DNA of 60,493 nt, counting the filler, from Hausera hauseri (lineage: Eukaryota): assembly GCA_046269625.1 (NCBI GenBank). It is 11 parts of 11 records of this genome, joined end to end, with 100 filler letters (N's around TTAATTAATTAA, not from the genome) between each part and the next. Parts side by side here need not be neighbours in the genome. Positions count along the whole stretch, not along the records: positions 1 to 8,089 come from JBJURY010782090.1; 10 more parts are not named here. One strand, 5' to 3'. The notes below the pieces were generated by a model. That model ran no database searches, was not told where the DNA came from, and worked only from the letters and a program-made list of their open reading frames with translations. Shown here piece by piece: positions 1 through 11,400 of the stretch (its first letter is position 1; every line of letters begins with the position of its first letter). The position numbers and the translations under genes were made by a program.

Positions 1-10
1 TTATTAATAA

Positions 11-442
11 TCAATTCATGATCCACTGTCCGAATACCGAGTACAGCACTTTTCCATTGCTAAACACATTGACACAAAGTGGGCGAAACAATGTATATCT
101 CAGCGCAGGAAACAGTTCGTGTTCACACGTACATTCAGTGGCCATTGCTAATTTGTACAGATTGATTGTTTGGTAGTCTAACTTAGTCGTTACCATTATT
201 GATTGGATTTGGTCAATAACAATTCCGAATGGCATTAGTTTAATGTTACTGTCAGCTGTGATTGGTTTGCGACAACCAATAATATGACACTCTCCCGATT
301 GAAATATAATGTATGTAAAATCCGGTGGACACTTGAGGACATACTGCCTCGGCTTCCATTAATTAGACGACAATGCACTAATACACTCAGTAACATGGTC
401 GCGATAGTTGACATTGGCTATTATAATTGAAACAGTGTTCAT
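11..442 (-). pseudogene. TATA-binding protein (TBP)-like gene, two-repeat fold, one premature stop
   Basis: One frame from ATG 442 through a stop at 359-361: IANVNYR...KPRQYV...YIIFQSGECHIIGC (repeat 1, cf. TBP LIFxSGKMVCTG) and IQSIMVTTKL...INLYKL...EHELFPALRY...VNVFSNGKVL (repeat 2, cf. TBP IQNMV...YEPELFPGLIY...LIFVSGKVVL). Confidence 0.8.
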
Positions 443-511
443 ACTGCACCTACTTATATGTATATGTATATGATTATAAACAAAATGTACAAGAAATGCA
501 TCGCCAGTGAC

Positions 512-1144
512 ATGAAGCTGNNNNNNNNNNATTGTAGGCCCCAGTGGAAGTGGCAAAACGAACTTTGTTTGCAGAACCTTGACATATTCCAATCGCCGCT
601 GTTGAATCACATTTACTGGCGTCAGGGCAGTGGCAATGATGCAGAGTCATACCTGACACGTCAGGAATTCTGTAAATTAAAATCCGTAACGGTAATAGAT
701 GGGTTTGATGAGAACTGGTCTGAATTATTAAGCAGCGGTGATGTTATTGCCATTGACGATTTATTTCAAGAAGCAACAAAACAAATCGGCTTCAACAACC
801 TGTTCACGAAGATTGCACGACACCGTGGTGTGACGGTTATTTTCATTACGTAAAACATGTTCCATCATGGCGGACAGCATTGAACAAGAAATCTAAACGT
901 ACACTATTTAGTGTTATTCAAAAATCCCCGTGATCAGAGTATCATTAATTATGTTGCACGACAAGCATTTCCTCACAGCAGAGCCTACTTGATAAATGTA
1001 TATCATGATGCTACGAACAAACCGCATGGGTATCAGTTTATTGACTTTACACAACAGTACCCGGATGACATGCGTGTACAAACAGATATTTTCAATCCGA
1101 AAGGTGTATGTGTCTATAAACAAATTCGAAAATCGACAATATGA
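512..1144 (+). pseudogene. Maverick A32/FtsK-like DNA packaging ATPase
   Basis: Walker A IVGPSGSGKT just after the gap at 531, Walker B IAIDDL, then FTKIARH, IFIT*N, LNVHYLVLFKNPRD and KPHGYQFID. It has a frameshift and stops. Confidence 0.92.
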
Positions 1145-1356
1145 TTGCGATAAAATGAAGAATTTCCGAAAAACAATTGTTAAACGTAAACCTATCAAGC
1201 AGGTGTCTGCAAGAAACGTGTATCAAAACGAACCGCTACAGTCAAGCGATTAATCAATTTTGTGCTTCGAACAACAGCAGCAGCAACTAGATGCAAATTA
1301 CCGTCACAGTGGCAACGGTTATAAACAATTACGTGTTAGCATCAGTACGTCCAAAA

Positions 1357-1650
1357 ATGCTATTGAAACGTAGTCAGCCGTACTTTATTGCTTTGCTCAA
1401 AGCACCTACAAGACATAAGCGAAACATGCTACAATCATTCCCTAAATTTGTAGTAGACGATTTCATGGAAATTTTGTACAATATTATTGTGGGTTACGTT
1501 GACATTGGTAGTGGAAAGCGAAATTTATTAAAGTATCTAAAATGACTCATTGGCCTTGCCAACACTCGTAGTAAACGACTGAAACGAAAGTTTATGTACC
1601 AGCAAGATGACGGATTCCTTGGTGCAATTCTACCAATTATCACGTCATGA
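1357..1650 (+). pseudogene. Small conserved Maverick basic protein (PW/core-like) ending in a QxxGFLGAILP amphipathic tail
   Basis: EILYNII.G.V...KRNLLKYLK*...KRLKRKFMYQQDDGFLGAILPIITS resembles the Maverick 'ExxxNxLxG...QKGGFL' protein. Confidence 0.65.
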
Positions 1651-1790
1651 CTGGGTGGACGTATTTGTGGGAGAGTTTAGTATAAATATAACGGTAAGTA
1701 TATGATGATTTAGGGATATTGGTGCCTGGTTTTTATCACTTTGTCCCAGTTTACCGAATTTTTTATTAACGTTTCGTTCTAATTGCTGCA

Positions 1791-2790
1791 ATGCAAACAA
1801 AAACGACATCATCGACAACAACAATAGGCGACTTGTGGTTCGATCCGTATCATCTTTTCGGGTATACTGGCGTCGACAAATTTGAAAAGACTTTCAAACA
1901 GACTCGGCAACAGACCCAACATTGGCTGGGGAAACAGTTAGCATACAGCCTAAACAAACCGATAAGAGGGCGGTTTCCAAATCTTGCGTACCGTGATGCA
2001 GGTGTAAATAATGTATGGTAAATGGATTTGATAAAAATGATTCCGTACATCAACGATGGGTATCGGTACGTGCTGACATGCGAGGAAAATGTATATCCAG
2101 TAAAGAGATTGACGAAGCTGTTCACACATTAATAAACCAACAGAAACAACCACTGAAACATGTATAAACGGATTTGGTTAAAGAATTTTAGAACTCCCAT
2201 CTCGCATTTGTTTTGAGGCGGTTCGGTGTAAACCACTACTCTGTGTTTTCATAATACAAGACTGCACTCGTTGAACGATTTAATCGAACCATACGCGGCC
2301 GACTGAACAAATCCTTTTCCAAGCAGGGCAATAAACGCTCGGTAAATGTGCTACCGGATATTATCAATGCATACAATCATTCGATACATCGTGGCGTCAA
2401 TGGATTACGGCCGCTGGATGTAATCGACGATTTGGACATGTGGCTTTACCAAAACCTGCAACAAGCAGTTAATCGTCGTCTGAAACATAGATTTGGTTAT
2501 TATGTACCCATTTTATGGCCGAACACAACGCCATTTATTAAGAATTTCAATCAGAACTGGAGCGATTAGGTTTTCCGAATTTCAGAAATCAACACAAAAC
2601 AATCATCCGTCATGTAAGTTTTGGAAGATGAGAACGGTGAGGAGATACGTGGTAAATTCTACGAACAGGAACTGCAGGTACTGTCAGAAAAACCCGACAT
2701 ATATCGTATTGACGAAATTATACGTTTGCGCGGTAAAGGTTCGAGTAAACAATATCTCGTCAAGTGGCACGGATACACTGCAACAAGTTA
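1791..2790 (+). pseudogene. Maverick c-integrase (rve) with C-terminal chromodomain
   Basis: Motifs YSLNKPIR, W*MDL, NDGYRYVLTC, VERFNRTIR, YNHSIH, NWS, GKFYEQELQ and YRIDEII...YLVKWHGY. Confidence 0.92.
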
Positions 2791-2811
2791 GATTTTTGCA
2801 TCACAGATTCA

Positions 2812-3857
2812 ATGAGCAGCATTTACTTGGTACTTGGTAGTAACAGATCATTATCACAACATGACGATAATGACAATACCGCTAAACAGTTTACCATGCA
2901 CTTGGACCAACCGATCGATTTACGCCAGGGAGCATGGGAAGTGGCGCTGATGGATTTCACATTTACATTTTCACACAAATCAGTAAGTGAGAAAAGCGGT
3001 ATTTACTTTATCCGACTATAAAATTACCCTATTTCAAGTCGTTTACAGTTAATCCGAGACTCTAAGAAATATATTCATCGCAATTATTCGCAATACAATT
3101 TCTCGGTTTATGCTTATTTTTCAAACTACCGTATGGAACTAACACATCGACATCCCATGGAATTGCAGTTTGAATCCATGGCTGATGCTGAGGCACGGGG
3201 TTTTCAATCAGTCAGTATACGCTCGAAAGGTCTACGGCTAGGAGGACATGTTATAATTGGTGAAAAATCAAACCTTTCCACTAATGTGACAACTGCAGCT
3301 GTAGTGAACTGGATTAGGTCAGAATCAGTCTTTCGATCATATATTGTACCATATGACTTATTTATGAAAACGGAATTGGAATTGTGTGAATACGTCCAAA
3401 AAACGTCTACGTTAGCTGTAAAGACATGAGAAATAAACATAGATGATCACATTTCGCTTACACTACATGACAATGTTATATATTTTGCCTCTGATGAATT
3501 ACTGGCTCGGAATCTAGGTTTTTAAAAATGCGAATTCTATCAAACCATTGTTGGACAATCTATTGTTGCCAAATACAAACCACAATTCTATGGAGCATTT
3601 TGACGGACTTAGCCGAATCCGTACTCGTTGGTGGAGAACGTAAACAACTACTGGCTTCTACCGAACTGGATTCTGAAACATACAAAACATCGGGTGAAAC
3701 TGTTCACGTTAATATGCTTAGACTCATGTACTTATCACTGGCTCACAATATTGTGCACAGTATTTCCGTGTATATACTTGATGAATTTTGCGAACTCATT
3801 AAATTTCTGATGGGTCAACGACACATTTGACGTTATATTTTATGACATCAATAATAA
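2812..3857 (+). pseudogene. Minor capsid (penton/PX-like) protein, paralog 1
   Basis: N-terminus IYLVLGSN...NTAKQFTMHLDQPIDL..AWEVALMDF; C-terminus TDLAESVLVGG..KQLL...MYLSL...ISVYILDE. Confidence 0.72.
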
Positions 3858-3891
3858 ACAAACTGCATAATCATTATTGACATCATTGTAA

Positions 3892-4973
3892 ATGAGTATT
3901 TACATGATGTTGCCTAGTAACAGTTGTCCGACGACTCGCCCAGTGAATACATTCAGCCAGTGAATACATTGTAGATTGGAACCATTCATTTGAACTTATC
4001 TGGAAAATGGGAGGTTGCACTGACGGAATTTAACTTTTCTATACGCAACGATGACATAAAAAGGTAGTATGAATATAACGTACAACAAAACTGTTACTGA
4101 AACCAAAACACATTATTGTCCTCTGACACTTACTAACAATAAAATAACAGTTGGAGAATCTTCCATTTGCACGACCAGTACAAATTACTATTCATATAAC
4201 AAGATCGGTGTTTTTATTTTGGGGAAAAACTTACATTTTATGAAAGATTTTGAATTTACTGTCACCATTGAGTTTTCTGAGATAGCGCAGAAATTTATAT
4301 TCAAAAATACAGAGTACAAAGGTAAACATATTAAAACTAAATATGCAGTTGCGCCAAGATTAAGTCCGTACATTACCAGATAACGGTGAAATTTACCTAT
4401 ATAGCACAAAGGGTTTCAACATTATACGTATAGATTGGATGTAATGTCTGGTGCGAATCTGTAGTACATCTCTTTCAACACTTTTCTTAAAATCAAAAGT
4501 GCAAGGCGATATTTAAAGTTTTCGAGTCAGATGCAAATGGGTACATTAAATTTGAACTGGCTAAGGATATTGTCGACATTTCATTGCACAATGCTTTGGC
4601 CATGGTGTTGGGTTTTGAAAAACAACGGTTTGAGGCATCGAATACAAAGACGGCGGCGGCATATGTTGCTACACTTAAACCCAAACTAAAAACTGGACTA
4701 AGTCAAATATGCATTTACGTGAACGTCACCGAACCGATTTTGGTTGGTGGAGTACGTATACCGCTACTCCGTGCAATTTATCCGGAAAACAGTAAGTATA
4801 TTTTTGGCGACAATGTCACTGTCAAGGTCAATAATACAATGTACCTACCTGTGGCAACTACATCTATAAACAATGTTCAAGTGAATATTAGATGTGACGT
4901 GAGCTACCTTATTGAATTTCCGTACTCTACCACAACTTCTCTAACTCACCATTTCCGTCAAATCCATGATTGA
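3892..4973 (+). pseudogene. Minor capsid (penton/PX-like) protein, paralog 2
   Basis: N-terminus MSIYMMLPSNS...LSGKWEVALTEF; C-terminus IYVNVTEPILVGGVRIPLLR...MYLPV...INNVQVNIR...TSLTHHFR. Confidence 0.78.
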
Positions 4974-5328
4974 TTCTGAAATTGTTTCCATTTACAGTAA
5001 ACCCCAGCAAGGCAGTGAACTACCGTATCTCGCTGTTAAACAGTATGGCTCTGGATGGTTGCGTACATTGGCACGTTTATCATATCCAGTGTTGAAGAGT
5101 ATTGGACCCGTGGCAGCAAAACAGCACAGGATGTACTATATAAAAACAAATCGATTTTACCACCACTTATAGAATACACCTTGAGAGAAATAAAAAGCTC
5201 TGCACCGGGAGTCGTTGAATCAGTCAAAAAATAATTCGCCGGTAGTGGCTTGAGAAAACGACGTAGATCATCATCGAGCTCATCAACTATAAACATACGT
5301 CAAAGTCGTACGATTTTCGATAGATTGA
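4966..5328 (+). pseudogene. Maverick core/membrane-active-like protein (QYGSG + amphipathic helix, basic tail)
   Basis: KQYGSGWLRTLARLSYPVLK...AGSGLRKRRR...TIFD. GxG motifs are candidate adenain cleavage sites, and the gene lies just before the MCP. Confidence 0.65.
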
Positions 5329-6559
5329 TGGACAAATTGCATCTGCAAAATCTGAATTGTGCATATTGGACAAAGCCGCATAAGAAGTTGTTATTGACAA
5401 TGCAGTATTTGCAGAAATCTAGCCCTTTGATTCTGTTTCAACGGACGATAACATTGACATTCAATTCAACATTATGGCATTGGACAATGAATATCTAGAT
5501 TTAAACTATACGCTTGTCATTGTTGAAAAGGATGCATCAACGGTTTTCACTGAAACAGACCCTGTCACACCGGCCAATTATCCTTTCCTCACACTGTTCC
5601 AGGAGGCTTCACTGACTCTAAACAGCGTCAAAATTGAATGCAACACCAATCTATACAGTATCAAAACACTCATTGAAACGGCTCTGAATTACAGTGCAGA
5701 CGCGAAAACGATTTATTTGACGAAAACCATCGGATATGACGCCACTGCACAAATCGTCAGGCATGGGTGGCAGAATCAAAGGGGCTTACCATGTGCGGAC
5801 CGCTGTACTTTGAAGTTTTTGATCAGCCAAAATACCTACTGCATGGTGTTAAAGCCATGATTCGGCTCAAACGCAACGACACTGTCCTTTGTTTAAAAAC
5901 CGCAGCTGAAGACTTCGAACCAATACTGAAAATTACCGAGGCACGACTATGCGTACATTGTGTAAAGGTAGAACCATCTGTGCTCATGGGACATCGATTA
6001 AGCTTGGAAACACAAAATGCCTGTTAACCATTACAAGTCACAGAACTCGTATTTTACACCATATCCAAAGGTTCAACTACGTTTTACAAAGATGCACTGT
6101 TTGGCGACATGCGATTGCCGAAATTTGTGCTCGTTGCATTTGAAGTGACTGTTCTACAAACGGGCCGTAATACCATCGATTCGGAAACGCTTACCCATAG
6201 CAATGTGAATTATATCAATTTGAGTCGGAATGCGGATTTCGCTGAGAACAAACAAGCAGGATTTCAAGACCGGCGATTACGTTTGCGCATATATGCAATC
6301 TATCGTGCGCAACATGGGTTTGCTGAACAAACATGTCAACAATGGCATATGGATGGATTTGTTCAAGTCCACCTATCCATTCTTAACCTTTGTCCTGGCT
6401 CCGGTTTATGACGTTAAACAGACTCAACTACGTCAGCAAGGAAACCTACGACTGGAGGTTTACTTTGCTAAAGCGTTGGAGAAATCTACCGTGATGTACA
6501 TTTAAGGTGTATTTTATGCCAAGGTTGAAATAACGAAAAACGAAACCATCATTGTATAA
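5328..6559 (+). pseudogene. Maverick major capsid protein (PY, double jelly-roll)
   Basis: KSEL..., EYLDLNYT, NYPFLTLFQEASLTLN, IETALNYS, FDQPKYLLHGV..IRLKR, LPKFVLVAF, GNLRLEVYF. Multiple frameshifts. Confidence 0.9.
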
Positions 6560-6591
6560 ATAAAATCTTCATCTTTGTACCATGAAGTACT

Positions 6592-6990
6592 ATGAAGTAA
6601 TTTATTTTGATTACTACCATTCTGCTTCAATCACATTTTACATTTAGCTCAAATGAGCTCAGTCACTATGGAAAACTGCTCTTGGACGTGAAATTTCGTG
6701 GCGTGTTTCCACTGGACTGTGTGCCGCGTGATTTACGAGAAACTGACAGCTTTATTGTCAATACACAAACATGGGATTGCTGTGTACGTCCATCCGACCA
6801 ACCTCGTCAGAGTATTCGATCCTCTCGGATTTTACTGTCTGCCATCTTTAGTTTCTCAAATTGAACGGCTTTCATCATCATACCGAGTTGAATATAATCG
6901 AGTTCATTATCAACATCCAATGACTACTATGTGGACATTACTGCTTATTGTGGCTTACATTACAATCACTTTTGTGAAATATATGTATTA
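6592..6990 (+). pseudogene. Adenain-like cysteine maturation protease
   Basis: FRGVFPLD, FIVNT, (H)xIAVY, VFDPLG, YN...YQ...TxCGHYCL across frameshifts. Confidence 0.85.
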
Positions 6991-7410
6991 TTTTATTGCT
7001 GTTGTTTTGTGTACCAAAGAGCGAACAATTCATGAGAAATATAATATGTGACTTTTGATCACAATCATTCTCCTTGTGAGTAGTAGTACTCAATTATGAG
7101 TTCGTCATACAAAGTAAAATTCACACGACTTTTTACAAAACGAACGAACGCATTTACAACGATGATGATTNNNNNNNNNNGCTTACATTACAATCACTTT
7201 TGTGAAATATATATTTGTATTATTTTATTCCTGTTGTTGGTTTTTTTTGCGAACAAATCATGAGAAATAATATGATATTTTCATTGATCACAATCATTCT
7301 CCTTGTGAGTACTAGTACTCAGTTATGAGCTCATCATCGTCGCCGTCGTCATAAAAAATAAAATTCAAACGACTTTTTACAAAACGGACGAAGGCATTTA
7401 CAACGATGAT
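6953..7410. repeat. ~220-bp direct duplication either side of a 10-N scaffold gap
   Basis: gcttacattacaatcacttttgtgaaatat...tttacaacgatgat occurs at ~6953-7170 and again at 7181-~7410 with small indels. Confidence 0.85.
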
Positions 7411-8089
7411 ATTTTGACTTGTTAACAATGCGTTTTTTCGTTTGTTCGTTCGTTCGTTCGATTTCATTTTTCAGCCCGATCCATTGGTCTGATCGAGAGG
7501 CCGCTATAATATGAAAATTTCCCAACTTATTGACAATGTATTGGACCAATTTCCATCACCGGCAGACTTGAAAATGGGGAAATTTTACCCGTTTGAAAAT
7601 TCCCTATGGAATTTTCCCCATGTTCTCATGGTCTGACCGACGTGCAACAATGTCCATTGCAATCGGCAATATCTATTTACCCCTGTGTAAATCGTTCCGT
7701 GTTACACGTGGAAAATTTCCTGTTTTGATTTTTCCTCTTATAACGCCTGTCCCTTACATTTCTGTAAGCCGTATCTCTGTTAACTTTTGCTCACCTCGTC
7801 ACGCGCTATTGATGTCACCTGGTCCGAACCTCTTTGCTCGACCTCATTTTCTAGGGGGGGGGTCGTGAGAAAATTTTAGTGAAATGTTCAGAATAGCCAA
7901 TCAGGTGGGGAAAACTGGTCGGCTGACCAATCAGAGAAGTGCGGTGGAGAGCTCACTTCTACATTACTGACCACATAAATAGATAAGTCTCTACCGACAA
8001 CTCCCTTTCTCTCTCTCAGACCCCATAGCACGGTTAAGTAAAGATAAATTTAATTACGTACGATTATTAAATAAAAGTTCTCCCAATTT

Positions 8090-8450: not shown

Positions 8451-11400
8451 TCACCCCTCGTGGCATAAGAGAGATTATGTAAAGGTGAAAAGAATAAGAA
8501 AAATAATAAGAATGAAAACAATGAATCGCAACGAAGGAGCAATGTGTAGTGCCTAATCGTTATAGTATGAATCAGGCGTTGTGTACCATCAAAGAACTTT
8601 TCTTTGCTGTAGGCGCTAAATGTCACTGCATGTCTTGATTGATTAGTGCTTGGCTGTTGTGCGACATTATGTGATAGAATTTTGTGAGATTATCTGGTTC
8701 AATAGATTTAGGTGATGGAGGTGATGAAAGTAGTGATATTGACAGAGATGGAGGAAATGATGATAACTGAGTGTGACAGAGCAATGGTTGCTGTAACGGC
8801 GCAAAGACGTGGAGAAAGTGGGAGGATAGATCAGGAGTGGGGGTGGAATTTGAATTGGAGGTAGAGTTGGCATCCGGATTGTCATTAATGAAGAAAGCGG
8901 GCTTCAGATTCGAAATAGGAACGTTGTAAGGTTTGTCTTGGCGTAATAGATCGTGGTTGTATGAGATGAGAGATTCAGCAGTTTGTATGGGCCAACATAT
9001 TGAGGTCAAAACCCGAAGGCGATTGATCGTTTAGCCACACAAACTTGGCGGTGTTCAAATCCTTCGGAATGTACGATCTCTTATTGTTGAAGAGACGGCA
9101 GAATGAGTCTGAGCTGACATCGACAAATTGAGATTGTGCTGCACGAATGTTTTCAACTGTGGGATTGTCGTCGAGATCAGAAAGTTCAAAACCAGAATAG
9201 GAGTTCCAAAGAGTGCCTCGGTGGAGCACAAACGGTAGTGGTTGAGAGTGTGTTGCGCCACCCTAGTAGAACAAATGGTAGAATGGAGGTCCAATTACGA
9301 TGATTGTCAGCCAAAATTTTTAAAGAATTTTTCATGGCTCGATGGAACCTTTCAAGGAGGCCATTTGCATGAGGATGATATGGTGTAGTATGGAAATGGG
9401 ATATCCCCAAGCGTTTGACAAATAATTTGAAGAGTTCCGATTCAAATTGCGGACCTTGATCCGTTATTATATAACGTGGGGAACCAAAACGACTAATCCA
9501 GATTTTTATGAAGACATCGGCTACTGAATCAGTGTTCGTTGAACGAAGAGGAACGGCTTCAGGCCAGCGAGAAAAACGATCTATCATAGCAAGGATATAT
9601 TGATATCCGTTGTTAGAAGGCAGAGCCAACAAGATCAATATGAAACGTATGAAAACGTGAGGTACGGGGGAAATGGTAAAGCGGCGGTTTAAGATGTTTG
9701 TTGATTTTGTATTTTTGACAGGCTACGCATTCCTTAACCCAGCCCTGTACATCTTTGCGCATCGATGGTCAAACTACATGACGATGAAGCAGGCGAAAGG
9801 TTGCTTTCGAAGCCGGATGATGGAGTGAATGCGTATAAAGGAAAGCTGGTTTTTGTAAAGGTGTAGTTAGAATGATCTTTTTATTATCGGAATTCGACGT
9901 ATCAAAAGATAAGGAAGTCAGCAGACGGTTGATTAGCCGTTAAGACTTCAGATGAGAAAATCGGCTCAACTGTAATGGAGCCAACTGACCTCTACAGAAA
10001 ATCTGCTGCCAAATTATCTGTGCCTAAAATGTTTTCTAAAACAAAACTGAATGTAGACAAGTATGATGTCATTCTTGCCTCGGCAATGGCTGTTTTAATG
10101 ACATGATATGCACTAGAGGCTTCTGGTCTGTTTGAATCACGAATGGAGGAGTTTTGGGAATATCATCAGGTGCAACCGGAATTTGATGATAAGCTTTATG
10201 CAAGTCAAATGTGGAGTACGTGTTAGTATTGGTAAGACTGTACAGGAAGCCCTTTATGAGAGGTAAAAGGTAAGCATCCAGGGCTGTTAGGTTTAACTGC
10301 CGATAGTCGCCACATGGTCTGTGTCATCTTTGTTACTACATGCAACGGTGAAGCCCATGGTGATTTTGATATTAGAATAATACCAGCCTTTTCAAGTTCA
10401 CTGAACCCTAATTCAACGGCTTTTTACTTACGAGGTGACACTGGTCTGACCTTTGTCTGATAGGTCTTTGGTGTTCGGTGGCTATGTGGTGATAAGTTGT
10501 AGAAAGCGGCTTGAAGTTCACGTCCTTTTTGAGTGTGCGGAAACAAGTTGTGATATAAAATTTGAGATTGGAATCCATAGATGAGAATGATTGACGCATA
10601 TCATCAGAAGCGACAGTGGATGGTGTTGGCGAAGATTAACCGTAACTTCCACCATCAACACTCCGTTTCCTCGGTTTTAAAACCAACTTAGATACGTTTG
10701 ATGTGATGGAAGAAATGAATAAAATACTAAATGTATCGTTATTAGCCGACAAACAAGTTTTCAAATTCACACGCGAGTTGACAGCCGAGAACGACGGAGT
10801 TTCTACTCGGCTGTTTAGTAGATATTTGTTGGCATCCACGACGGAGTTTCTGCACAGCAGACAGCGATACTTGCAGTCAACTAGCAGATATGTGCGACCA
10901 GAAAATCTGAGCCGATTATTGGCGAATTAATATTAGCCACGTGGAATATCCAAACTTATCTGGCAAGTTGGCGAATGTGAAAATCAGTTCCGTGGTACCT
11001 GCAGTGTGCAACGGTTGACCACTGGCAGTGAAAAGCGGTGGAGAAGAAACTATTTTCAAGGGAAGGAGTGAAAAGGAAGCTCCTGAATCGATGAGGAAGT
11101 CAATGTGTGAAGCATTGTTAGGGAGCAATGCAGATTTTAACAGAAAAACTGCCGAGGCTGTGTTAAGACGGCCAGAAGATTCAGCGGTATTGCCTATACC
11201 AGAATGTGCTGTGGCATCTGCCGGCGTTGTTAGTTTTTTAAGGTTTATTGGGTAAAAGAAGAGGAATAAAAAAAGCGACGAGAAGACGATGGGGAAAAAC
11301 TAGAATTCTTTTTATAATATTTGCATCCTAGCACACAACCTAGCCTTGGACTGATTTTTTGTGTAATAAATGCAGATTGGGCTGTCTACTGCATAACGTT

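Follow-up and report, generated by a model that had tools for sequence, protein, structure and literature searches.

The Maverick copy at the start of the window (the whole 60,493-nt stretch of Hausera hauseri DNA analysed here) and its intact relatives carry a TATA-like box, (T)ATAAACA, about 35 nt ahead of the packaging, capsid, protease and integrase-region genes. The box lies on the coding strand at a fixed spacing, is constrained at the DNA level, is confined to one Maverick clade and coexists with a second, canonical promoter class. On balance we favour the reading that it is a late core promoter served by the element's own TBP-like protein, and the analogy with the herpesvirus ORF24/TATT system leans, to a similar degree, towards an early-to-late switch of that type. 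Maverick gene control was essentially undescribed in the papers searched, in which we found neither a promoter motif for these elements nor a description of such a box/TBP system.

A broken Maverick with a TBP-like gene

The window copy is a broken Maverick with a slimmed-down TATA-binding protein (TBP) gene, 73% identical to P0001, and intact relatives are known. Its gene pieces align with those relatives and include a packaging ATPase, major and minor capsid proteins, a protease and a retroviral integrase. Profile matches to PF04665 (ATPase), PF00665 and PF00770, the latter two in relatives, gave the gene set of a Maverick/Polinton. Pfam gave no capsid match, and the capsid labels are presumed from alignment and known motifs. 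The features are as follows.

14..442, minus strand: disrupted TBP-like gene, with an in-frame stop and a decayed 3' part; Pfam PF00352, E=6e-10; tblastn
425..430, minus strand: TCAATT, initiator-like site, 30 nt after the 460 box
453..460, minus strand: CATATAAG, near-canonical TATA-like box, 36 nt ahead of codon 424
475..482, plus strand: TATAAACA box, 37 nt ahead of the packaging ATPase, in the head-to-head gap
512..1144, plus strand: A32-like packaging ATPase, broken; C-terminal VYKQ encoded by the next box
1115..1122, plus strand: TATAAACA box in the ATPase end, 40 nt ahead of the small basic ORF
1155..1331, plus strand: putative small basic ORF, broken; same position in relatives
1320..1327, plus strand: TATAAACA box, 37 nt ahead of ATG 1357
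1357..1680, plus strand: conserved ORF of ~105 aa, broken; ATG 1357 is the start in relatives
1681..1688, plus strand: TATAAATA, positional homolog of the YATAAACA box ahead of the small MG-ORF and integrase
1745..1873, plus strand: small ORF remnant overprinted on the integrase 5' end; tblastn to L013, L014, L022, L026 and L001
1791..2815, plus strand: retroviral-type integrase with C-terminal chromodomain, broken; PF00665 in relative L008
2744..2751, plus strand: AGTAAACA, degenerate homolog of the relatives' chromodomain box, aligned by eye
2812..3845, plus strand: minor-capsid-like gene 1, broken; label presumed from position and known motifs
3853..3860, plus strand: AATAAACA, variant or decayed box 39 nt ahead of ATG 3892
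3892..4973, plus strand: minor-capsid-like gene 2, broken
4865..4872, plus strand: TATAAACA in the minor capsid end, 101 nt ahead of ATG 4966
4966..5335, plus strand: presumed PZ-like gene, broken
5288..5295, plus strand: TATAAACA box, 48 nt ahead of the homologous capsid start
5336..6559, plus strand: major capsid protein gene, disrupted by stop codons and frameshifts
6555..6562, plus strand: TATAAATA overlapping the capsid stop codon, 37 nt ahead of ATG 6592
6592..6930, plus strand: broken adenain-type protease gene containing a GT-AG intron of 51 nt (6597-6647); PF00770 in relative L020

The window contig held no protein-primed DNA polymerase B; long PolB-like ORFs were present in L008 and L014, their profile matches falling outside Mavericks and Pfam giving no PolB match. 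No long inverted repeat was found in contig 1-8089, which holds only part of the element, and the rest of the window contained retroelement integrases only, with no second copy. A weak TBP-like tblastn match at 7805-7942 (E 0.003-0.03) was treated as chance. With its ATPase, chromodomain integrase, capsid genes and adenain protease, and candidate pPolB genes in L008 and L014, the clade resembles Mavericks, Polintons and adintoviruses; in vertebrate Mavericks, unlike the clade described here, there are no introns, and TBP lies outside the eight core genes (PMC8097293, PMC8502044). A TBP-like gene in MELD viruses is labelled in a figure legend of PMC8502044.

The box is enriched on the coding strand of the window

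The original prediction paired seven TATA-like motifs with ATGs 37-40 nt downstream, and all seven pairs were found at the given coordinates and spacings. TATAAAC occurred six times in positions 1-7100 compared with 1.05 times in 2000 dinucleotide shuffles (P=0.0015), and TATAAACA five times compared with 0.42 (P=0.0005). The reverse strand of this region had no boxes, the enrichment being on the coding strand only.

Four pairs (475/512, 1115/1155, 1320/1357 and 6555/6592) were upheld, ATG 6592 because the intron directly behind it is common to L008 and L014. The homologous boxes lie 32-48 nt ahead of the ATPase in all eight relatives compared, 34-36 nt ahead of the small basic ORF in 5 of 5 and, for the box at 1320, at 33-52 nt in 6 of 6. 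The pair 3853/3892 is plausible in that the minor capsid gene of L008 is followed by a box at the equivalent place and its protease is preceded by an A-first box, but A-first boxes otherwise scored 0 of 21. The proposed box GATACAC at 2772 was rejected: it differs from the box at two positions, a match as good as that found before 21 of all 149 ATGs, and it encodes G-Y-T of the chromodomain. The relatives' chromodomain box lies ~28 nt further upstream, aligned by eye to window positions 2744-2751. ATG 5328, proposed as the capsid start, was likewise set aside, as it sits in the frame of the upstream gene rather than the capsid frame and the capsid starts of three relatives align at 5336, 48 nt from the box.

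Both genes said to lack a box at the usual spacing, the integrase and 4966, have one further upstream that the original prediction did not list (TATAAATA at 1681 and TATAAACA at 4865). The former occupies the place of the relatives' box before a small ORF overlapping the integrase start, where YATAAACA stands 32-35 nt ahead of the MG-ORF in 5 of 5 relatives, and the long spacing ahead of the 4966 homolog (99-107 nt) is kept in 4 of 5. On the minus strand, TATAAT does read at 478, 36 nt before ATG 442 as claimed, but the TBP start is codon 424, at which the TBP starts of six relatives align. The dual use proposed for 473-480 is therefore not needed, and we rejected it.

Box position and sequence are conserved in intact relatives

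In a set of 27 non-redundant relatives, all with the same TBP-like gene, a de novo k-mer scan of the region 28-52 nt upstream of ORF starts ranked TATAAAC first among 7-mers; it preceded 37 of the 198 first-ATG starts, against 2.08 expected. Spacing from box to ATG had a median of 35 nt and a sharp floor at 32. In an unbiased test of sites, 44 of 98 NATAAACA sites had an ORF ATG at 32-45 nt and none at 28-30 nt; non-overlapping letter permutations of the box reached at most 11%. By the same measure 37 of 62 TATAAAC sites were followed by an ORF compared with 4 of 93 TATAAAA sites. Of the 62 TATAAACA sites, 25 lacked an ORF at 32-45 nt, some of them because of long spacing or an intron. Among 51 core starts, which were set by hand and some of which were picked after boxes had been seen, 37 had a box at 30-52 nt, 10 more at 75-107 nt and four none. 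Thus, intact relatives strongly support a gene-by-gene, strand-specific, fixed-spacing, promoter-like box, which also helps to place gene starts in the clade.

We considered whether the box might not be a promoter at all, being instead a signal of poly(A) type that serves the gene before it, a motif of the encoded protein (YKQ, SINN) or an AT-rich coincidence. Many boxes do overlap the upstream stop codon or sit in gene ends, as this explanation expects, and one box in L014 lies near the end of the last gene with no ORF after it. Yet boxes also occur in head-to-head gaps (window 475, with no same-strand gene upstream, and L014 1953), and spacing is tight to the downstream ATG (interquartile range 33-37) but loose to the upstream stop (range -113 to +61). 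ATPase ends read TAT AAA CA in 7 of 7 non-redundant relatives (P about 0.005), with synonymous sites frozen, and the resulting YKQ footprint was found in 110 of 120 clade proteins versus 2 of 141 others. Minor-capsid ends read ATA AAC in 5 of 5 (P about 1e-5), in a frame that differs from that of the ATPase-end box. The same letters are thus constrained as DNA across reading frames, the shuffles and permutations exclude chance, and we regard a non-promoter role as most improbable.

The box has an invariant core with a variable first base (T 30, C 4, G 3, A 1; n=38) and a fixed C at position 7, where canonical TATAWAWR has W, over loci that span 27-47% GC. An invariant ATAAACA could point to a host sequence-specific factor of the forkhead type, which would give tissue-specific expression; the forkhead consensus is RYAAAYA, of which GTAAACA is the commoner form, and the window's chromodomain site does read GTAAACA. 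We consider this clearly unlikely, however: forkhead sites act in either orientation and at loose positions, but none of the 51 starts had GTAAACA, none had the box inverted (0 of 51 each), and the tight spacing suits a core element.

A core promoter and a start site differ in the leaders that they would produce. Where the original prediction expected leaders of ~10 nt, initiation 29-32 nt after the box, the distance in the canonical class, would leave ~3-6 nt at the median spacing, and a scanning ribosome does not readily translate from leaders that short. Such leaders would be avoided, and the lack of an initiator after the box accounted for, if the box were itself the start site in the manner of the baculovirus start-site motif TAAG, with leaders of ~30 nt. 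The floor at 32 nt is nevertheless what a start ~30 nt downstream predicts, and the ORFs scanned, from incomplete elements, included no viral RNA polymerase gene, which makes a start-site role highly unlikely.

Some TBP genes have a second, canonical-type box

The clade has two promoter classes, missed by the original prediction, and the TBP gene belongs to the canonical one. None of 22 TBP genes was preceded by TATAAACA; a canonical box was found in 8 of the 22 and was absent within 30-60 nt in the other 14, and TCAKW occurred near the ATG in 17. In relatives L009, L012 and L022 canonical boxes stand 35-36 nt ahead of the TBP start. TCAKW followed at +27-30 after 6 of 14 TATATAAG sites compared with 2 of 62 TATAAACA sites. 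The second class, seen at some of the TBP genes and at non-structural genes next to them, consists of a canonical TATA followed after 27-30 nt by TCAT and resembles cellular TATA-initiator promoters.

The box is confined to one Maverick clade

Because equal prevalence in Mavericks lacking the TBP gene would have undone the proposed link to the viral TBP, we compared Mavericks outside the clade, where the box was absent apart from 1 of 80 core starts (5 box sites in 216 kb outside versus 51 in 95 kb within). Four outside groups with other TBP-like genes (L047 family, L070 family, L064 and L101) had 0 of 20 boxes; a Maverick TBP gene therefore does not imply a private promoter. No other fixed motif emerged in outside Mavericks with or without TBP-like genes (best P 7e-5 among thousands of k-mers, at low power). 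The comparison favours the link to the element's TBP-like protein, but box and protein type occur together in a single clade; the correlation therefore amounts to one evolutionary event and could be a product of host or clade history. Both the ATPase tree and the TBP tree were quick trees with long branches, the latter built without cellular TBP. Searches of viral contigs with the TBP, capsid and ATPase alignments returned no relative, nor did a search of phage records with the ATPase.

The TBP-like protein has an altered DNA-binding face

The protein belongs to the PF00352 family by sequence and fold similarity to TBP and shares with cellular TBP/TRF the C-terminal repeat, three of the four Phe and the E-P-E stirrup. 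Its DNA-binding face, as judged from the residue-to-base contacts assumed for TBP, carries changes invariant in 120 proteins. Canonical TBP has four intercalating Phe and two full repeats, whereas here the first Phe is Pro in every one of 120 proteins and the first repeat is cut to ~60 aa, unmatched in a PDB profile search. In the second repeat, Asn and Ser replace a Leu and an Asn. The model predicts that the saddle sheet is kept and that the first-lobe helices are absent. The acidic stirrup, which binds TFIIB in canonical TBP, is kept as E (115) or D (5) and E (120) in all 120; TFIIB binding is also the role given in PMC12529657. A structure search of the viral library BFVD returned TBP-like proteins of giant DNA viruses (best E=2.2e-7, TM 0.63).

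These features bear on whether host TBP/TFIID might instead read the box as a weak TATA variant, for example on amplified template, with the viral protein acting, for instance, as a decoy for host factors or as a repressor of the canonical class. Host TBP can bind C-containing TATA variants via Hoogsteen pairs, according to PMC4402545, and PMC10005294 describes a TATAAAcg box that kept 27% activity in one plant assay and a TBP relative, TRF2, that has lost one intercalating Phe and does not bind TATA. The viral protein itself has only three of the four intercalating Phe and is missing much of its first lobe, and other Mavericks have TBP-like genes without the box. Host reading would nonetheless leave unexplained the fixed C7 beside a variable position 1 across loci of 27-47% GC, as well as DNA-face residues invariant in 120 proteins, and the same elements use canonical boxes elsewhere. 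We therefore view it as possible but doubtful.

A candidate early-to-late switch

In our preferred reading, in which the element's own TBP-like protein serves the box, host TFIID would transcribe the canonical class first, yielding viral TBP and replication proteins. Viral TBP would then serve the initiator-less TATAAACA promoters and recruit host RNA polymerase II, probably through host TFIIB because the acidic C-lobe stirrup is kept. Each virion gene would be transcribed separately, the leader being a few bases long, or ~60-75 bases where the spacing is long; monocistronic transcription of the boxed genes, as originally proposed, may be expected from this arrangement.

PMC12529657 and PMC4893493 describe beta- and gammaherpesvirus late transcription by a TBP mimic (ORF24/BcRF1/UL87) at TATT(WAA) promoters. 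Both systems have a viral TBP-fold protein with an extra Asn on the DNA face, and a non-canonical box at structural genes with conventional promoters at early genes. They differ in that the Maverick protein is a stand-alone TBP of ~150 aa whose sequence similarity Pfam can detect, retains the acidic TFIIB stirrup absent from ORF24, and has a box that departs at position 7 rather than, as in TATT, at position 4. The box is TATAAACA rather than TATT, and none of the five partner proteins of the six-protein complex was seen among 40 ORFs scanned. By analogy, the element's system would work like the herpesvirus vPIC/TATT system without being a member of it, and the genes with and without the box appear to fit a late/early split of herpesvirus type.

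The separation of replication genes from virion genes by promoter class points to a timed viral cycle; according to PMC8097293, no virions had been observed for vertebrate Mavericks. The evidence stands in about even balance on the broader proposal that a reprogrammed TBP of ~150 aa, reading TATAAACA and using host TFIIB and Pol II, may constitute the smallest private viral TATA code, independent of herpesviruses and running a timed infectious cycle in a widespread Maverick clade. The principle is already known from herpesviruses and the window copy is dead; if the proposal is true, a compact natural TBP paired with a box of its own would offer a clean model for the way TATA specificity changes and possibly an orthogonal promoter-factor pair.

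Giant DNA viruses also encode TBP-fold proteins and mostly bring their own RNA polymerase, whereas no RNA polymerase gene was seen among the clade ORFs scanned. Virophages and Polinton-like viruses are reported to share with the clade a short conserved motif before genes in a small integrating DNA virus. Their motifs are read by the helper giant virus, whereas here the candidate reader is on the element itself.

Boxes and gene starts in a partial Maverick

The window consists of contigs with N spacers between them, and the box system lies in the first contig (positions 1-8089), which holds a partial Maverick with genes interrupted by stops and frameshifts; from the type of element, the host is probably an animal. 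The original prediction had placed seven TATAAAC-type boxes ahead of particular ATGs, and all seven pairs were confirmed in the sequence. Positions 1-7100 contain six copies of TATAAAC, where 2000 dinucleotide shuffles give 1.05 (P=0.0015); the reverse strand of that interval has none, and TATAAACA occurs three times in the remaining 51.5 kb, both strands counted. Most of the observation held, and four of its details were corrected. The proposed capsid ATG at 5328 is in the frame of the upstream gene, and the capsid start of the relatives corresponds to 5336. The TBP-like ATG had been set at 442; the start codon of the relatives' TBP genes corresponds to 424, with CATATAAG 36 nt upstream and TCAATT 30 nt after CATATAAG. 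GATACAC at 2772 qualifies as a box variant only with two mismatches, a tolerance that 21 of 149 arbitrary ATGs also satisfy, and boxes at 1681 and 4865 had been overlooked. The gene start at ATG 6592 was upheld because L008 and L014, two relative loci, have an intron directly after the same five bases.

Vertebrate Mavericks are reported to be intronless, unlike the three elements whose protease gene has this short GT-AG intron immediately behind its fifth coding base:
Window 6597-6647, protease intron
L008 ~8484-8520, protease intron
L014 ~9199-9237, protease intron

Elsewhere in the window, a tandem duplication of ~230 nt at 6953-7410 repeats the protease 3′ region across a 10-N gap and could be an artefact of assembly; two CCAAT boxes at 7890-7935, close to the end of the contig, possibly mark an element-end promoter region; and several contigs in 8190-60493 carry remnants of LTR-retroelement integrases and polymerases.

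Occurrence of the box in relatives with intact genes

The minus-strand ORF 442-14 matches Pfam TBP (E=6e-10), and all 11 candidate proteins were its relatives, the best being 73% identical. An alignment of ten of them led to 43 loci in metagenome contigs, which form 27 non-redundant groups, and several keep uninterrupted runs of the genes found in the window's element, their order included.

Three tests on the 27 relative loci are independent of the hand choice of starts. An ATG opening at least 40 codons lies at 32-45 nt from 44 of the 98 NATAAACA sites, with nothing in the spacing histogram at 28-30 and counts of 11, 19 and 8 in the bins that follow; same-letter permutations score at most 11%, except for three that hit these sites in a shifted register. 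A de novo scan ranked TATAAAC first (37 of 198 first-ATG starts vs 2.08 expected), and across 94.7 kb there are 51 instances of [TC]ATAAAC with an ORF 32-45 nt further on, spread over 19 of the 27 loci. At 51 hand-set core starts, some of them fixed after the boxes were known, three of them one base off and the L026 minor capsid uncertain, the box lies at 30-52 nt in 37 and at 75-107 nt in 10, and is absent in 4; in L008 it stands 33-36 nt ahead of seven genes. We conclude that the box is real and clade-wide, and very probably a promoter element.

The box is undescribed in the full-text literature searched; subscription papers and Repbase records may also be relevant to this. Neither TATA nor TBP occurs as a term in PMC8097293, PMC10748475, PMC11296320, PMC11161782 or 10.64898/2026.06.19.733378. 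PMC8502044 and its preprint 10.1101/697771 label a TBP-like gene in a figure legend, and the supplement text contains neither TBP nor tataaac, although figures and the remainder of the archive may be relevant. PMC12529657, PMC4893493, PMC4402545, PMC10005294 and PMC12209930 were also drawn on.

A DNA signal of the downstream gene

The box frequently lies within the upstream gene or across its stop codon. The spacing from box to following ATG shows an interquartile range of 33-37 nt (39 cases), and that from box to upstream stop ranges from -113 to +61. The box is read in more than one frame, and its synonymous sites do not vary in 7 of 7 non-redundant ATPase ends (P about 0.005) and 5 of 5 minor-capsid ends (P about 1e-5), P values that assume independence of related, not fully independent sequences. 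It is also present in head-to-head gaps, where transcripts have no end. We conclude that the box is a DNA-level signal belonging to the next gene. Reading it as a forkhead site is disfavoured, since GTAAACA and the reversed box were each found at 0 of the 51 hand-set core starts.

A small ORF with its own box overlaps the 5′ end of the integrase gene by overprinting; it starts Met-Gly, has a Cys-Cys pair and resembles a lipid-anchored peptide:
Window 1745-1873, overprinted ORF
L014:4536-4736, overprinted ORF
L022:637-879, minus strand, overprinted ORF
L026:3410-3661, overprinted ORF
L001:3021-3194, overprinted ORF
L008:4691-4855, overprinted ORF

A second promoter class

TATAAACA was found at 30-52 nt ahead of none of 22 TBP genes. 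Canonical TATAWAW lies at 30-60 nt in 8 and is missing there in 14, and TCAKW lies within 20 nt of the ATG in 17; this canonical class is less uniform. TCAKW falls at +27 to +30 after 6 of 14 TATATAAG sites, 20 of 238 TATAWAWR sites (other bins 1-12), but 2 of 62 TATAAACA sites. The geometry is that of the host TATA-plus-initiator promoter (PMC10005294).

The class also includes a conserved gene neighbouring TBP, with an acidic tail in some copies and an intron in others. Its weak likeness to single-strand binding proteins, through weak atlas matches to Pox_I3 and DUF2738 (0.84, 0.81), weakly suggests a single-strand DNA-binding protein.
L039:536-1294, minus strand, TBP-neighbour gene
L035 and L031, TBP-neighbour gene
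L014:1253-1822, minus strand, TBP-neighbour gene
L008:1502-2138, spliced TBP-neighbour gene
L003, L007 and L017, spliced TBP-neighbour gene

The TBP-like protein and the reader of the box

The protein survey covers the best 120 of 1096 matches, the remainder of which may include cellular TBPs. These 120 proteins are mostly 140-160 aa long; their second repeat finds solved TBPs with E values down to 6e-22, and the first repeat found none in the same search. Mapped on yeast TBP, with the yeast residue numbering and DNA contacts, F99 is Pro and L205 is Asn in 120 of these best 120, N159 is Ser in 117, F116, F190 and F207 are retained in 119-120, and the E-P-E stirrup (TFIIB stirrup) is kept. An AlphaFold2 model of the closest relative of the window ORF (P0001; pLDDT 89.7) has the saddle strands and lacks the first-lobe helix; the viral structures most like it are TBP-like proteins, and BcRF1 ranks 27th. 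The first lobe of TBP contacts the 3′ half of the TATA box, and the altered first lobe predicted here would fit the C in that half, a suggestive match only.

YK[QH] at the end of the ATPase is the footprint that the box leaves in protein; it is present in 110 of 120 clade ATPases and 2 of 141 non-clade ones (150 representatives of a wider search, 9 of which were placed in the clade by a quick tree built on the first 70). A degenerate pattern excluding the clade yielded 70 outside loci in 28 groups, GC-richer on average, with 15 groups at ≤40% GC included; the box precedes 1 of their 80 core starts, any upstream Met allowed. In the outside groups without a detected TBP, the box was found at 0 of 29 starts in the six fullest loci and 1 of 60 core starts across all 24 such groups, many outside loci being fragments beyond which a TBP gene may lie. 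Four outside groups carry other TBP-like genes, with the box at 0 of 20 starts and no other fixed motif found; the box therefore follows the clade's TBP type, which makes up one side of a branch in a quick, long-branched tree, and not TBP genes generally.

We are highly confident that the box is some type of promoter element. The promoter part of the original prediction stands clade-wide, and its other part, service by the element's own TBP-like protein, is judged likely. The scheme we moderately favour is that host TFIID would transcribe the canonical class and viral TBP would then serve the virion module's TATAAACA promoters. The chief alternative, in which the box is read by host TBP and the viral TBP-like protein has a different role, appears less likely.

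The outside TBP-like genes adjoin the capsid gene; some are near-canonical with two repeats and one form is divergent, and Mavericks may have captured TBP repeatedly or long ago.
L101:2229-2780, plus strand, TBP-like gene
L064:2443-2976, minus strand, TBP-like gene
L060:13444-13986, plus strand, TBP-like gene
L070:15943-16500, minus strand, TBP-like gene

Accessory genes of the relatives include, by Pfam, a ubiquitin-conjugating enzyme, a RING finger and a C2H2 zinc finger; a DxE ORF is presumably nuclease-like.
L014:222-719, minus strand, accessory gene
L026:1710-2171, plus strand, accessory gene
L038:1734-1940, plus strand, accessory gene
L014:9591-10055, plus strand, accessory gene

Many Maverick-bearing contigs among L045-L113, probably eukaryotic, sit in bacterial genome bins, at least 40 of them from one bin.
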